A stretch of DNA of 62,282 bases, filler included, from Collodictyon triciliatum (Eukaryota): assembly GCA_043381765.1 (NCBI GenBank). It is 17 parts of 17 records of this genome, joined end to end, with 100 filler letters (N's around TTAATTAATTAA, not from the genome) between each part and the next. Parts side by side here need not be neighbours in the genome. Positions count along the whole stretch, not along the records: positions 3,744 to 7,380 come from JBHJMP010007050.1; 16 more parts are not named here. One strand, given 5' to 3'. The notes below the pieces were generated by a model. It had not been told where the DNA came from, ran no database searches, and was given only the letters and a program-made list of their open reading frames with translations. Below, one piece after another: positions 3,700-39,875 of this stretch. How positions within the stretch are numbered: the first letter of the stretch is position 1; each line of letters begins with the position of its first letter. A program made the translations under genes and the position numbers.

Positions 3700-3963
3700 N
3701 NNNNNNNNNNNNNNNNNNNNNNNNNNNNNNNNNNNNNNNNNNNTTGTTTGTTTGTTTGTTTGTTTGTTTGTTTGTTTGTTTGTTTGTTTGTTTGTTTGTT
3801 TGTTTGTTTGTTTGTTTGTTTGTTTGTTTGTTTGTTTTTTTCTCTTCGGTCTCATTCAGCCTGTAAGTGAAAAACTTCATTACAAAGGTTGTGGCGAACT
3901 TGGTTTTATCGCTTTCAAGGACAATACTTTTTATACAACGAAAGTATCCCCATGCATAGCAGT

Positions 3964-4422
3964 TTATTGCGCAGACAACCATCGAATTAAATCTGGATTG
4001 ACAAAAGCAGGAGCTTTGATGAATCCAAGAAACAACCTGAATAAAATAATAGTATGATTACTATATAATAAGGTTAAAAAGTCCTTAAAATCTCATTCTG
4101 TTCCTGTAATCAATTTATATTCTATTTACCGTTTCTGTAATATTAATTCAAATATTACAAACAAGCCCTTGCATTGACCCAGACAGAACACACCCTATAA
4201 AACTGCCACCAAACATGTATTTCAAAAAAAGCATACTATTCACACTTGCGGCGGTAATCATTTTGTTTGAAGCCGATATGTTGACTTTCAGCCGCAATGG
4301 CTATACGGCCGTCCTTTCGAACTCGCCGAATTGGCTCTCAGCGTTTTGTCTCAAATTACTTGTAAAAAAACTTGGTGTGTTTGTTTGCCACAATGCGCAT
4401 ATTATGAAAGCCTCGGTAGATG
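3964..4422 (-). pseudogene. Degenerate 3-exon C-terminal fragment resembling alkaline ceramidase (CREST superfamily), copy A
   Basis: Putative exons 4422-4327 (AFIICALWQTNT..NLRQNAESQF), 4235-4159 (FFEIHVWWQ..) and 4036-3964 (LFLGFIKAPAFVNPDLIRWLSAQ*). They resemble the ceramidase pattern LWxxDxxFC...E-x-H-[AG]-W-W-H. Recognised by eye only. Confidence 0.45.
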
Positions 4423-4494
4423 CTTAATTTTACATGAAATGATTTTGTACAGTTGTTTGTATTTTTAAATTGACTGATTGACTAAAGTTTTATT

Positions 4495-4502
4495 AAAATT
4501 GA
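4495..4502 (+). promoter_or_regulatory. AAAATTGA motif (Mimivirus-type early promoter octamer) 54 nt upstream of the Fanzor ATG
   Basis: Exact octamer, at the same -54 position in copy B (33985-33992). It also occurs by chance elsewhere in this AT-rich DNA. Confidence 0.4.
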
Positions 4503-4548
4503 AAACTCGGTAGTTTTCTAAAGGAAAAAGTAAAACAAAGACTTTCAC

Positions 4549-6549
4549 ATGAAGAAAAGAAACCGTCTTGAGTCTGAAAATCTAAAGTCTGTAAAACCAG
4601 ACTATTGAAATGTGAAAACATCTCTGAAGTCGATTGTAAAGAATGCGGATGACTGTGACAAAATCAACGATACGGTTTTATTGTGTCATAATTTGGTTAC
4701 CGACACAATTATCTGTTTGCAAGATGTTACATATTGAAGTCATAACAACTCCCAACAATCGATAAAATGAAAGTTTTTTTTGTACGCTTTAAAGATAGTC
4801 GGAATAGTTTCACAAGATAGACCCGCAAGTTTAAAAAAACCAGAAATGGGGGATGACAAGATGACTTTTTATCTCTACGTTTTTCGATTCCATTTGTCCC
4901 GAGAAGAACGTTTTCCGTTGGTTGGATTGTCTCATGTATTACCGTACTTGGCGAAGCAAATGTTAACAGCTTATCATAATCACCTTCACCATCCTGCACA
5001 AAATTGAAAGGAAGAATAAAAAAAAAAACAGCTTATCATAATAACATTAAGGAACGTTTTGTAAAGAGGTTACTGCACTTTATAAATCGAACACTTCCTA
5101 AAGACAAGAATGTTATGGAAGCTATTAAAAAGGCAGAGTTACGAAAGTTTAAAAAGAAGCCATCTTCAATAATCTCGAAATACCGGAAATATACAAAGAA
5201 TGGGCTACAACGCGTTTGAATCATATCATTCCCAGAGATATTGTAAATGGTATCGAATGTGATGTCAAAGTCAATCCAAATAAGTACATTCAGTGTCTGA
5301 CTTACATGAATCGCATTTTGGGGGACATTGGAACCAAACTGCTTCAACCAATCTCTATAAGAACTAACAATATACCATGTCATGTTACTCTAGATACTGC
5401 ATGTTTGATAGAGCTATTCGTATTGTCTGAAAAAACGTTACTGAAGAATATATCAGGATGCAAAGAGACACTATTGAATGATTATTTTGTAATGAAGAAG
5501 AGGGTCTTTAATCAAAGATATTAGAATTTTAAATACATGATACAAACAGACGAGTTGGCGGTATCATTATTATTTGAAAACAATAAAGCTATTTCAAATT
5601 CAAAATCTCAATATAATAATAAAAAAAACCCAAGAATATGTTTATATGGATGAACTTTCCGAAGAGCAGTTATCTTTATTAGCGACAAAATAAATAGTTG
5701 GGGTAGACACAGGCAAGCTTATTTGGGTTAGATGGTGAGTGAGACAGGTAAGAAATTACGTTACACGGCGCGCCAAAGAAGATATGATAGCAAATCTCTT
5801 AAAAATCACAAAATACTCTTGCGCGAGAAAAAAGTACATTGCTTCAGGGATATGCATGACAACAGATTTACAAAGTGCTTTTTCCTTTTGGTCCCCTGAC
5901 TTTTGAAGAGAATCAGCGGTTTGAGACATCAAGAGTATTTTTAATCGATTTAGAGACAGAACTGAGTAAACATAATTTATGCACGGTCGATTATGAAAAA
6001 TTTCGAAAATATATATCTATGAAATCAAGATACCAGATAGAATTTTGCAGATTTTATGAACACGTAACTTTTCGAAAGATGAGATGGAGACATTATGTTA
6101 ATGCAAAAAGAAGTGAACAGTTGTTCATGGACGGAATCGAAAAGACATTTGGCAAGGATGTTGTTGGCGTATGGAGACTGGAGAAGAAAATCTCCGATGA
6201 AGCATTTTATGCCAACAATCAGAAGTGCATTACGAAAAATACTATCCAAACGGTTTGAAACAATCAGTGTAGATGAATTTATAACCTCCAAGATGTGCTG
6301 CAACTGCGAAAAATACTGGATTATATGAAACTGAAAGGAAATTCAAAAAATGTGTATAGATGTCTCATATGTAAAGAATGCAATCGCCCAGACAGCAAAC
6401 ATAGTGTATTCTTGACAAGGGACTTTAACAGCGCTAATGATAGACTCAAGAAAGTGCTTTTAATCCTAAAAATATGCGTACACCTTTCTTTAAAAAAACA
6501 GGCTGTCGGGTCAGTCCTGGCAGCCTTCAACACTACACAATCTTTGTGA
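4549..6549 (+). pseudogene. Fanzor (Fanzor1-like, TnpB-derived RNA-guided endonuclease), frameshifted with in-frame stops, copy A
   Basis: N-terminus VKTSLKSIV..KINDTVLLCH; LDTACLIELF; FKYMIQTD..VSLLF; RuvC-I IVGVDTGK (GAC 5706); FRKMRWRHY..KRSE; LAYGDW..KHFMPT; RuvC-II VDEFITSKMCCNC (GAA 6275); second Zn knuckle CKEC; RuvC-III TRDFNSA (GAC 6421). Spans about 2 kb. Confidence 0.9.
4981..5026 (+). mobile_element. 46-nt LINE-derived insertion with A-tail and 16-bp TSD inside Fanzor copy A
   Basis: TSD AACAGCTTATCATAAT at 4965-4980 and 5027-5042. The insert CACCATCCTGCACAAAATTGAAAGGAAGAATAAAAAA matches 40560-40597 and the reverse complement near 39597-39635. Copy B has the empty site near 34452. 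Confidence 0.9.
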
Positions 6550-6640
6550 AAAAAGTGGTGAGACCTTGGATACTAGGACACCAGGTTTACTATTCGGAAG
6601 ATTGATATACCTCTTCTAGTGAATATTATAATTGATGCAA
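6500..6640 (+). ncRNA. Candidate Fanzor omegaRNA scaffold plus flanking guide, copy A
   Basis: Conserved with 35980-36097 past the ORF end. Nested stem TCA(C)CACT-ACACAA/TTGTG-AGTGGTGA and a second stem AGACC(T)TGG...CCAGGTTT. Conservation stops at about 6621. Confidence 0.55.
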
Positions 6641-7480
6641 TATCAATAAATAAAATCGGACTTATCCTTTATTTTATTCGACCTTTTACATACCAAATAT
6701 AGCATGATTACTGAGTGAAAACAGACAAAGATCGAACATCCACAAAACCCTGCCATGTCGTCTCGGGTGGCTGCGCTGACTCTGTTCGCGGACTGCACTA
6801 CACCATTGCGTGGAATCCTAAAGGGCTTCGTTAACAGATGTCGGATGACGAAGAAGCGCAAGAATATCGGCAAGAAGAGCCGCAGCCAACCGCGCTTTTG
6901 GTCTTTGAGAGTCCCGTGGGGAATGCTCTCTGCGAGAGAAGAATCCGGCCCCGCTCGGTTCCTGGGTCCAGACAGGTCGAAAGCAGGTTTGTGTGTTCGA
7001 GAAGACGCGTACATACTGCATTTTTCATGTGCGCGCTCTCAGATAAATAAAGGGCTTGGTATTGGAGCCTATCCAATCATGGCACACTTTTTAAGGAGCA
7101 GGAGTTCAACAAAAGTGAAGGGAAAGTGGGATGCACAGATGATCTTTGCGAATTAATGACATCTGCCTCATGATTTTTTACAACATTCAGCGATTTTACA
7201 TTCCTCTTTTCTATTCTATTCTTTTCCATTTATTTCTTTTCTTTTCTATTCTATTTCTATTCTATTTCTATTCTATTTCTATTCTATTTCTATTCTATTT
7301 CTATTCTATTTCTATTCTATTTCTATTCTATTTCTATTCTATTTCTATTCTATTTCTATTCTATTTCTATTCTATTTCTANNNNNNNNNNNNNNNNNNNN
7401 NNNNNNNNNNNNNNNNNNNNNNNNTTAATTAATTAANNNNNNNNNNNNNNNNNNNNNNNNNNNNNNNNNNNNNNNNNNNN

Positions 7481-36467: not shown

Positions 36468-37335
36468 NNNNNNNNNNNNNNNNNNNNNNNNNNNNNNNNN
36501 NNNNNNNNNNNTTAATTAATTAANNNNNNNNNNNNNNNNNNNNNNNNNNNNNNNNNNNNNNNNNNNNCTTGTATTCTTGTATTCTTGTATTCTTGTATTC
36601 TTGTATTCTTGTATTCTTGTATTCTTGTATTCTTGTATTCTTGTATTCTTGTATTCTTGTATTCTTGTATTCTTGTATTCTTTTATTCTTGTTATTAATT
36701 TTTTTTAACAATTTTGTCTTCTGTTGCACGATATTTTCGCTTATTTTATCTATGGATATCATACATGAGTAAAGCTTTGTATTGCTCTGCATATTTTTTT
36801 ATAGGGAAAAATGGGGCGCTTCGAAGTGAGCGGTTGAACAATTTAGGAACATAATTAGAAAATTTAGAGAGCCAAATTAGTTAAAATGAGCTCTTTTAGC
36901 AGGATATATAACTATGTTGATGATAACATTCCTCTTGTAGGATGTATTGACGCACAGGAAAACTTTTGCTCAGCTAGAGACAAAATTTTCTACACCGCAT
37001 TTACTAAATTTCTGGAGCTCTTTAAGGTTATAAAAGTTATGCTAAATAAAAAAAAAGTGTAGGCTTAACATCAACCACGAGGGGTCAATCATAGTAAAGG
37101 TCCAGGTGAAACAAGGCATATTGCACGGTATTGTTTTTCCTTTATCCATTTCAAAGTAGCAATATTAAATCACACAATGGACAGAATAGGTGAGTATATT
37201 AGGTAGCCAAGGCTAGTTATAGAAGGAGATATCTTATCACTTGTACTTCTCCTGATTACACAGCCTATAGCAGGAAAAATAAAATCCTGTGAGGTATTCC
37301 GTATCAGCATAAACATGTAAAAAGAAAAGAGACTT

Positions 37336-37404
37336 TTTTCCTTAATTCGATTCAAAGTGTAGCTAGGTTATGCCATACAAAGGAGCGGGATAGGAGCGCA
37401 TGGG
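37336..37404 (-). mobile_element. 5'-truncated LINE 3' end (about 70 nt) with TSD
   Basis: AAAAAGAAAAGAGACTT at 37319-37335 and 37406-37422. The insert matches the LINE 3' end (ATTCGATTCAAAG..AGGTTATGCCATA). Confidence 0.85.
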
Positions 37405-38706
37405 AAAAAAGAAAAGAGACTTAATCACTGTCTATTTGCAGGTGATATCAAATTATATACAAACAGAAGAGAGCGGCTATATAGACCTGTTGAAATATCA
37501 TTAAGCCATAATAAGAAAGCTGGGCAAATAGAAAAATGCAAGGTAATCAGCGACTGACTGTAAGAACGCCTTTTTAAGACCAAAGACATTAGGCAAGATT
37601 GAACTTATGTATACTAGAATTTTAGGAAGACTGAATAAATCAATTCTCAAACAGAAACAAGCTAGGATACCAAAATTTAATATGCACTGAGTTCGAGAAT
37701 CTACTAACTTTAAAAATATGCGACGAACACATTTTCTTATGGATTTATTAATGTCTATCGGTATTTAAGAATCATATCGGACCTTGAATCTACAGAAATA
37801 ATGAGTTCAGATAAATGAAATTTGTAGTAAAATTTTATGAGCTTTGAGAAAGTAATATTTGAAGCTGTTAGTATATAATCACTCCCTGGCGACATAATAA
37901 AATGTCATGGCTTTGCAAAAATTGATTAAAGGACTGGAAATATGCTCTTATAATTTTAATGCTGCCTGAGTAAAATTTGGGCAAACCGTATAGAATCTGC
38001 TATCCTCATGATAGAAGAAAAAAAAAGGAAACATGAAATCTGAAACCTCAAATAGAGCAAATGCTAGTATCTTTATACCTGGAGCTCGACCTGGATAATT
38101 TTTGTCACAAAAATTTTCAAAAATTTCAAATATAATTTCTTGAAGGAATCAAGAACAAGAAAATAATTCACTTTACTATACACATCTTGGAAGAAGACAT
38201 CGGCCACTAGAAAGATTCCGTTAATTGGCCGGCAAAACGAACCAGTTACCTGATGAAAGAAGCTTCATCCTTTTCTTTCAAAACGGCACAAATTATTTAC
38301 AAGATAAACAAATTCAGCCCTCTTTACTCACGAAGTCACTTTCTCATCAAACTAGAACTTGAAATCTAACCTAAAACGCTACACTGGATACCATAATGAA
38401 TTAGAACAACGTATCCACACCCTTAGGCCTAAGACATGCCTCTCAGAAGACAAAATCCTGAAAAGGCATAATATTGAGCAACATCAAATTAAAGTGCCGT
38501 AACATTCTAACTGTGACTTTGACACGAGGTTCGGACCTTGGCTATAAGACCTATCTTAGTAATCATAATGAAATGATCAAATCATACGCGTCAAGGATGT
38601 AGCGGCAGTGATTCCAGTAAACTGAGCCAAAAATTGAACTGTAAATAGAGGATAAGTGTGGGAATATGAGGAGAACCCTGCCAAGAACACCACGAAAGAA
38701 CTATTC

Positions 38707-39875
38707 ATTTTTCCTTTATTCTATTCAAAGTTTAGCGAGGTTATGCCATAAAAAGAGCGAGATAGGTGCGCATGGTAGAGAGCAAACGCGAGTAGGAGAA
38801 GACACTGCTGTGGAGAGGCTAGCACTGGAAAGAAATCAGTGATAGTGAGTTGGTCAGGTGGGCGTCCCAACTGGTTGATTGGTTGCGTGGGCAGCAGTGG
38901 TTGGATATGCTGTGGGAGATATCGCACGACACATTCCCACATCTCTCTTCGCTTGCGGTCAGAGTAGCGAAGAATGCGAGCATGTTTCAGCAGGCTGTTC
39001 AGGAAGCTGTATTGCACGAGGCTTTACCACGAAGAACTATGGTAATCCCTTACGTTTTCTCTTGGTGAGGTGATGTCACCAAAAAACCTTGGACATCAGA
39101 TACACTTTAGGGTAAACTTTGAAAGTTCATCTTGGTTCAAAAAATCGTTACTGAGATGCACTCTGGGTATACCATTCAGAATAACCGAATATGGATAGAA
39201 ATAAGCAAATGAGATGATCTACAAATACATAATCGTCAGTGAAACATGAAGTCCAGAAAATAAATCCAAGGACGAAGAACTTCCACAACTCCCATGATAT
39301 TATTTCTGGCGTACTTGTGAGAATAAACGAGAAGAACCCAAATCCATGGCCACCCAAGAAAACGTAAAGAAAAGTAAATTCGCCATTTAGCAGGATAATA
39401 TGTCCTCTTCGGTCTTCATTCTTCGGGTAATTATCTGTTATGTTGAAAATCTATTTCCAAATAAAGAAAAAGGTCGGTGGCCATTTTACCCGAGCAGAAT
39501 ACGCTAATGGATAATTGAGGCTGAGTCACCAACTCAAAGCCACCGAGCAAGGGTGGTGCGGTAAATAATCGAAAGTCTTTCACGACCCACGCGCGTTTTT
39601 TTATTCCTCCTTTCAATTTGTGCAAGATAGTGGGGATGTTGGCTTTGGTTCGCTAGCCATCGTTTGCATGGATTCTACTTGTCGGCCGGGTGGCGGAGAA
39701 GTAGTCGGCAATCAGGAATTGCATCCTGCAGTTTGGTTTGTAGTCTGGTTCTGGTGCTTGTATGAGAGAGGCAAGGCAAGGTTTAATATCTTTCTCAGCT
39801 TCCTTCCACATGCCTCTTCTTACAAGGTCTGAGTAGTAGAGAATGACGACTTGTACGCGCTGAAGAAAACTATCA
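38707..39875 (-). mobile_element. Degenerate 3' portion of an L1/Tx1-like LINE (post-RT region, zf-RVT remnant, 3' end with AATAAA)
   Basis: Minus-strand frames read KLKGGIKKRAWV..FTAPPLLGGFELV (GGLGL-like motif), PAETCSH...PQAK and LLLAFALYHAHLSR, and end in GAATAAAGGAAAAA. This is the longest copy of the family seen as small insertions. Confidence 0.78.

Follow-up and report, generated by a model that had tools for sequence, protein, structure and literature searches.

The window, by which we mean the whole analyzed stretch of 62,282 nucleotides from Collodictyon triciliatum, strings together short contigs of a 75-Mb genome assembly. Between the contigs lie runs of N and a linker of the TTAATTAA type, at 7393-7424 and then every ~3.7 kb. 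Since this chain is artificial, its neighboring parts are unlinked. Two decayed copies (A and B) of an element with a Fanzor1 gene were found in it, together with a predicted RNA at their 3' ends. The labels P1-P3 as well as the terms Tc1/mariner and IS607-like are those of the present analysis. The features are the following:

3846..4548, plus strand: upstream part of the Fanzor cassette, copy A
4549..6549, plus strand: Fanzor1 pseudogene, copy A, with numerous stops and frameshifts; its stop codon 6547-6549 lies inside the predicted RNA
6500..6526, plus strand: P1, predicted 11-bp hairpin inside the last codons; a covarying hairpin occupies the same place in relatives
6527..6561, plus strand: P2, predicted stem-loop with a 4x8 internal loop and an inner hairpin (6536-6548); conservation with relatives is highest here
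6562..6570, plus strand: predicted 9-nt single-stranded linker, of the same length in close relatives
6571..6576, plus strand: 5' strand of P3 (TACTAG), predicted to pair with the element end and target bases (pair probability 0.74-0.97)
6584..6611, plus strand: subterminal Helitron-type hairpin (core 6588-6607, decayed in copy A), distal part of the terminal stem
6616..6619, plus strand: CTAG, 3' terminus of the element in copy A and 3' strand of P3
6620, plus strand: target T, a T in 83 of the 88 ends with an exact CTAG
6621..6635, plus strand: putative guide (flank), its start uncertain by 1 nt; common to the sister copy L007
32839..33075, plus strand: Helitron-derived segment and CT-rich microsatellite, copy B (32861-32918 81% to the locus L192)
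34039..36029, plus strand: Fanzor1 pseudogene, copy B
35980..36096, plus strand: RNA and element end, copy B, in a short-spacer form (TTAG 36092-36095, T 36096)

The 5' part of the element is lost in copy A at the contig start (3744). Copy A also carries a short A-tailed insertion (4965-5041) between 15-nt direct repeats (4965, 5027), which looks like the 3' fragment of a non-LTR retrotransposon and has related pieces at 24337, 28485, 39596, and 40554. Copy B hosts short A-tailed insertions at 32903-32959 and 35061-35117 with direct repeats of 13-16 nt, and their repeat family is also present at 33362-33476, 37334-37405, and 38708-38825.

Within the genome, a first look gave 352 candidates for the 3' part of this family, and one 22-mer has 76 exact matches. 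On protein level there were 1130 candidates, of which 68 were scored; none of these 68 represents an intact Fanzor gene and the longest stop-free match spans 180 aa. As criteria for Fanzor1 we used the RuvC D, an E just ahead of a C4 zinc finger, RD, and the TDG motif, residues that are invariant in the protein alignment of 52 relatives (D364, E555, C562/C565/C590, R603-D604, T312-D313-G314). Copy A keeps the RuvC D, the E, the zinc-finger cysteines, and RD, but in separate frames, and its TDG has become TDE. The nearest intact relative is P0001 (648 aa; 59%), in which both the catalytic residues and the TDG motif are preserved and to which the last 68 aa of copy A are 56% identical. A PDB search with a 280-aa family fragment gave significant matches to PpFz1, SpuFz1, and GtFz1 only, and P0001 matched the same three Fanzor1 structures (GtFz1 best, E 2e-28), while the Pfam match of the family was weak (Cas12f1-like_TNB, E 0.01-0.06, below the cut-off). 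Judged from the PDB matches, the nuclease would be a Fanzor1, nearer to Fanzor1 than to Fanzor2 or TnpB. Contigs of the sequencing run X1, possibly a DNA run, reach across the stretch as far as the 6600-6635 bin; the run X2 gave none.

A previous inspection of the same DNA, the sequence-only reading, had described conservation between A and B for about 70 nt past the stop and had placed the end of an omegaRNA scaffold near 6621 (A) and 36097 (B). Both observations were borne out: homology of A and B stops about 70 nt beyond 6547-6549, and the actual ends, CTAG plus T and TTAG plus T, lie 1-2 nt away, the final G common to A and B being due to chance. Among 137 distinct ends from the genome, a set favoring well-kept copies because similarity to the RNA region led to many of them, the exact CTAG is kept in 88; the next base is T in 83 of these, and TA follows in 46. 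The information per column is 1.2 bits at the T and 0.14 one base further on, ranges from 0.05 to 0.4 up to +12, and is near zero thereafter, so that homology reaching well past the boundary, named beforehand as the observation that would speak against it, did not appear in the 137 ends examined. The target T at 6620 may be counted within the scaffold by analogy with PMC10711439, where flanking bases are drawn into the scaffold and a terminal stem replaces the pseudoknot.

Sequence beyond the T is variable, with 120 distinct 15-nt flanks among 122 ends and a mean identity of 36%. The 15-nt length of the putative guide was taken over from SpuFz1 (PMC10432273, which describes the Fanzor1 scaffold layout and a guide of 14-15 nt). 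The earlier claim of copy-specific downstream sequence accordingly holds for the family and fails for copy A itself, the flank of which is the same as in L007. Common 3' flanks were observed in four groups of loci (L001/L007, L014/L108/L008, L019/L121, L077/L093); they are long in two pairs, representing duplicated loci, and short in the remaining groups, pointing to possible 3' transduction. A search for empty sites among the loci examined gave duplicated loci only. The right flanks resemble a Helitron 5' end above background (0.60 vs 0.45), and target preference is for this reason taken to explain the weak bias seen in the guide zone.

The consensus of 94 ends, folded unprompted, showed the same nesting as the fold of the relatives described below (-48.2 kcal/mol, z -5.4, with 0 of 300 shuffles as stable; opposite strand z -3.9). 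Its terminal stem comprises 6 bp, 6571-6576 with 6616-6621, and encloses the hairpin 6584-6611. Folded singly, the copies give weak structures, with z -2.2 to -2.5 for A and z -0.1 for B, and the terminal stem is present in 28 of 94 such folds. The loop of the subterminal hairpin is inverted in 11 of the 94 ends, which may be expected if the palindrome outweighs its loop in importance. Scanning 6300-6800 against Rfam gave no match at E<=1.

Of the three stems drawn in the sequence-only reading, only the first is among those conserved. This outer stem, which contains an inner hairpin and corresponds to our P2, recurs in the 94-end consensus with pair probabilities of 0.9-1.0 (one inner pair 0.54). 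An AAGA/TCTT pairing exists in copy A's own fold and is missing from the consensus fold. P1 at 6500-6526, the hairpin 6584-6611, and the terminal stem 6571-6576/6616-6621 were missing from that earlier fold. Its second stem, AGACC..GGTTT, could be imagined to close a loop whose bases pair with the 3' end, giving a pseudoknot of the TnpB/Fanzor2 type. This stem can form (-45.3 vs -48.2 kcal/mol, pseudoknot energy excluded) and occurs in 20 of the 94 single-copy folds; its pair probability in the consensus is nevertheless 0.01-0.02, it has no counterpart in the consensus fold of the relatives, and Fanzor1 RNAs are reported with a plain terminal stem instead (PMC10711439), leaving this fold highly improbable. 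A TnpB-type pseudoknot, our first idea, was abandoned on the grounds of the consensus fold, the fold of the relatives, and the terminal stem of PMC10711439. In the fold with a plain terminal stem, as modeled here, this stem would adjoin the guide in place of a pseudoknot, as in Fanzor1 omegaRNAs.

Conservation between copies was evaluated with 33 copies, located for the most part through the 5' end or the protein; 12 of these were identified with the additional help of a loosely matched linker motif. Identity to the consensus is 88% for the RNA region and 92% for the dead ORF. As the RNA region has not been preserved above the level of the ORF, inter-copy conservation reflects inheritance, not selection.

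An independent comparison was obtained from viral and metagenome relatives. Locus searches with single proteins found nothing, whereas the 52-protein alignment as query succeeded and led to 160 loci, made up of the top 80 among 402 viral matches and the top 80 among at least 554 from metagenomes. A common inverted-repeat motif ends 144 of the 160 retrieved loci, and a matching left inverted repeat was seen at 4 of 9 close loci checked, with L198 encoding a DDE_3 transposase (E 1e-13). From eight close giant-virus and metagenome relatives, aligned without any window sequence, we built the covariance model R1. These eight show the same helix order as the genome copies, and 16 of 44 pairs are changed on both sides, a value reached in 0 of 500 shuffles, which relatedness can inflate. 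Applied to the 62-kb window, R1 returned 6499-6621 (plus strand) as the top of 11 matches at E<=10, with a modest score of 17.7 bits and a rough E-value of 0.014, the runner-up reaching 12.8 bits; copy B of the window is too decayed to be found. Within 20 chosen well-preserved copies, R1 matched the 3' end of 18 at E<=0.032 (best 4e-5) and gave E 0.6 and 2.4 for the other two, and it matched none of five Fanzor-less Helitron loci. Thus, a model made from relatives only finds this exact stretch and its fold covaries among them, which upholds the omegaRNA scaffold proposed from the sequence. The covariance folding of right ends suggested at that time gave a divided outcome: covariation is found among the relatives (the above 16 of 44 pairs), and within the genome the 94 ends revealed no two-sided change in the terminal stem. 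We have little doubt that the scaffold is homologous to that of the relatives. A tree of 39 rows places two genome fragments and P0001 in a 96/91 clade with these relatives, on a long branch; it is midpoint-rooted and thus silent on the direction of transfer. In addition, a large viral and metagenome Fanzor1 clade (L207-L357) keeps P2 and the linker, with P1 apparently missing, and many members contain an extra hairpin within the linker.

Joint alignment of both groups revealed a difference at the terminal stem, which reads TTTTAC/GTAAAA in the relatives and TACTAG/CTAGTA in the genome family. Three of its six pairs differ on both sides, and the outer stem of P2 has one two-sided change (TCACC/GGTGA here, TGACC/GGTCA in the relatives); each of these differences counts as one event in a single comparison of two groups, made on an alignment fitted to the model. 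At the position of the subterminal hairpin the relatives carry their inverted repeat. This segment is absent here, 34-37 other nucleotides holding the hairpin in its place, and the right end has no terminal inverted repeat of the kind expected for a Fanzor element of Tc1/mariner type. On balance, we lean toward a terminal stem that was refitted to the CTAG|T end under selection on the RNA. CTAG is self-complementary, and therefore any duplicated CTAG would give four of the six terminal-stem pairs. This is the core of a competing account in which the upstream hairpins are an omegaRNA relic, the nuclease was cargo only, and the terminal stem pairs by coincidence: a former Helitron end would have consisted of the P2 hairpin, 11 nt, and CTAG, and read-through from this inner CTAG to a second one would leave two CTAGs that pair by themselves. 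The palindromic CTAG, the terminator-like inner CTAG 11 nt past P2, the missing selection signal in the copies, and the normality of read-through and new ends for Helitrons (PMC4778049) are all in agreement with it. Nevertheless, 0 of 123 motif matches stop at the inner CTAG, and the 5' strand lies exactly at the position of the relatives, with equal linker length and equal pair count, so that we regard accidental pairing as rather unlikely compared with a refitted stem.

Fanzor1 rides many transposon types. The ends of the present family combine a subterminal hairpin with a CTRR 3' end before T, as is characteristic of Helitron1 elements, and the genome encodes a RepHel frame (L164:627-4208; G000 C6377) that spans at least 1194 codons and includes Helitron_like_N and PIF1 (seven PIF1 matches in the genome); the RepHel contig stops within the helicase, its 3' end being observed only on the separate decayed copy L192. 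This frame has no stops in its readable parts and N-terminal STPR repeats, and represents a candidate transposase source. The locus L168 carries RepHel N-terminal sequence (80% over 152 nt). Sixteen Fanzor-less ends share the order hairpin, 8 nt, CTAG, with T next in 16 of 16, and one of their spacers is identical to one spacer of the Fanzor family. Four of these 16 ends join head to tail onto a 5' end beginning TCTATACAATAAA, which starts with TC; a 20-mer of this 5' end has 27 exact matches in the genome. The 5' and subterminal parts of Fanzor and Fanzor-less elements correspond over 240 nt at 80% and 126 nt at 79%. Past the shared microsatellite, 3' of the Helitron-derived segment, the Fanzor-less elements have their native terminator, which is gone in the Fanzor elements, where the Fanzor cassette starts. 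By sequence, the family would thus possess a cognate RepHel and sequence shared with it, and we consider the element end to be of Helitron type with good confidence. Fanzor sequence directly follows 2 of the 16 terminators (L167, L182). In L167, the native terminator lies mid-element and is followed by the 3' half of the cassette, devoid of its 5' half, with the RNA end as the end of the element; this layout fits read-through, and later deletion is possible. Independently, a young Fanzor-less Helitron family (L195, L197, L189, L183, L188, L190) was noticed, having an internal minisatellite of ~14 nt and exact head-to-tail junctions.

Canonical Helitrons make no target duplications. The 5' ends were examined in 34 both-ended candidates, of which 23 were kept as complete with the 5' end placed by eye; all duplication tests covered Fanzor-bearing copies only. 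The TC-starting Helitron 5' end is matched at >=10/13 in 4 of the 23 complete copies, the others being degenerate. A different 4 of the 23 match their own right flank at >=10/13, compared with 11 of 506 cross pairs (Fisher p 0.003), and among further copies 1 of 4 does so (L411, 10/11). The elements with such flanks, spanning 10-13 nt, are L065, L098, L359, L385, and L411. A direct-repeat (IS607-like) reading of the two ends had also been considered and was discarded, as the element extends further 5'. The duplication-like flanks could instead reflect a Fanzor1 scaffold on an element moved by a non-Helitron route with 10-13-nt target duplications, like the unclassified MCi-2, with the hairpin and CTAG as a look-alike. 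Besides these flanks, a mismatch-tolerant test of own against shuffled flanks is in favor of this route (P 0.001-0.007 at 9-13 nt). Against it, the exact-match test was negative over the 34 candidates (P 0.12), none of 15 truncation points showed a duplication (P 0.85), and most complete copies have none; furthermore, the likeness of right flanks to the Helitron 5' end inflates apparent duplications, and the RepHel-derived sequence as well as the Fanzor-less elements with the same end grammar are at odds with a look-alike. A non-Helitron route appears very unlikely.

Taken together, our preferred explanation, which we hold to be probable, is a fossil Fanzor1 omegaRNA scaffold in a non-autonomous Helitron of canonical type, refitted to the Helitron terminator. 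The founder transcript would have reached from the last 17 codons to past the element end, comprising P1, P2, the linker, and the terminal stem, with ~15 nt of flank beyond the scaffold acting as guide. Comparison with relatives reveals the fold of this founder RNA, and its transcription, binding, and cutting are proposed by analogy with characterized Fanzor1. In single-stranded DNA form, the terminal ~35 nt, made up of the hairpin, 8 nt, and CTAG, would have ended rolling-circle copying by a RepHel acting in trans, followed by insertion before a T; the end signature and the shared sequence are observed, and mobilization is what we infer from them. The cassette presumably originated in an inverted-repeat DDE element. 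Its inverted repeat in the distal terminal stem may then have been swapped for the Helitron terminator, and the 5' strand of P3 altered at three positions, keeping the stem closed. Such a compensated 5' strand suggests that selection, probably for homing-type maintenance, continued to act on the RNA once the move had taken place. After the refit, the element would have spread to hundreds of copies and then decayed; activity of the system today is extremely unlikely.

A more far-reaching version, in which a jump from a giant-virus DDE transposon to a canonical Helitron and the refit are joined by a role of Fanzor1 in integration, is considered improbable. Nuclease cuts beside the HUH nick would in this case yield the 10-13-nt target duplications in a minority of copies. 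If true, it would be the second case after Chlamydomonas and support PMC10288648, where Fanzor plus HUH cleavage is speculated to make target duplications. With regard to the refitted scaffold itself, the family and its inverted-repeat relatives show an end swap at base-pair level, with helices kept, a part replaced, and pairs changed. This marks the distal terminal stem as exchangeable, provides a predicted scaffold of 121 nt for the intact relative P0001, and offers a way to examine what makes a copy-and-paste element retain a homing nuclease.

An association of Fanzor with Helitrons is already reported in general terms: the cited parts of PMC10530073 describe Fanzor in non-autonomous Helitrons and the CrFNuc RNA, those of PMC3627910 describe MCi-2 with 11-12-bp duplications and Fanzor1 in Helitron2 with duplications, and according to PMC13565253 Repbase holds further Helitron cases. 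In the portions of the literature on Fanzor and Helitron or Helitron1 covered here, a refit to a CTAG end is not described; supplements and Repbase may hold such elements. The Fanzor1-Helitron2 elements CRe-1,2,3 of Chlamydomonas resemble the present family in being non-autonomous Helitrons with a structured 3' RNA, and some of their copies have target duplications (PMC3627910, PMC10530073). In contrast, they have Helitron2 ends (asymmetric inverted repeats, TTTT target) and not the Helitron1-type CTAG|T. The right end of Helraiser and Helitron1 shares the subterminal palindrome, CTAG, and insertion before T with the ends found here, likewise the AT-rich 3' flank, head-to-tail junctions, and read-through capture (PMC4778049, covering the terminator, the A-T target, junctions, and read-through). 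Its spacer measures 11 nt compared with 8 nt here; moreover, the 5' TC is clear only in some copies of our family, and the end also closes an RNA stem.

In terms of RNA layout, the omegaRNAs of SpuFz1 and GtFz1 are similarly located at the 3' end of the gene and consist of a stem-loop, a linker, a terminal stem, and a variable flank (PMC10432273, PMC11423790). They have a 7-bp SL1, beyond which little constraint is reported (PMC11423790); the GtFz1 RNA overlaps 17 codons, as does P1, and the dispensable distal terminal stem of SpuFz1 (PMC10432273) can be likened to the exchanged part. Their elements have inverted-repeat or unclassified ends instead of hairpin-CTAG|T, and they represent intact genes with sequenced RNAs, whereas we describe dead copies and an RNA deduced by comparison. 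According to a proposal in PMC10711439, it was the loss of the pseudoknot that made Fanzor1 RNAs adaptable to new ends. The elements with DDE_3 and inverted repeats (L198-L203, L279-L282), the nearest proteins with DNA context (41-47% to P0001), have the same fold of P1, P2, linker, and terminal stem, which encloses an inverted repeat in their case and a Helitron-type hairpin in the family described here.
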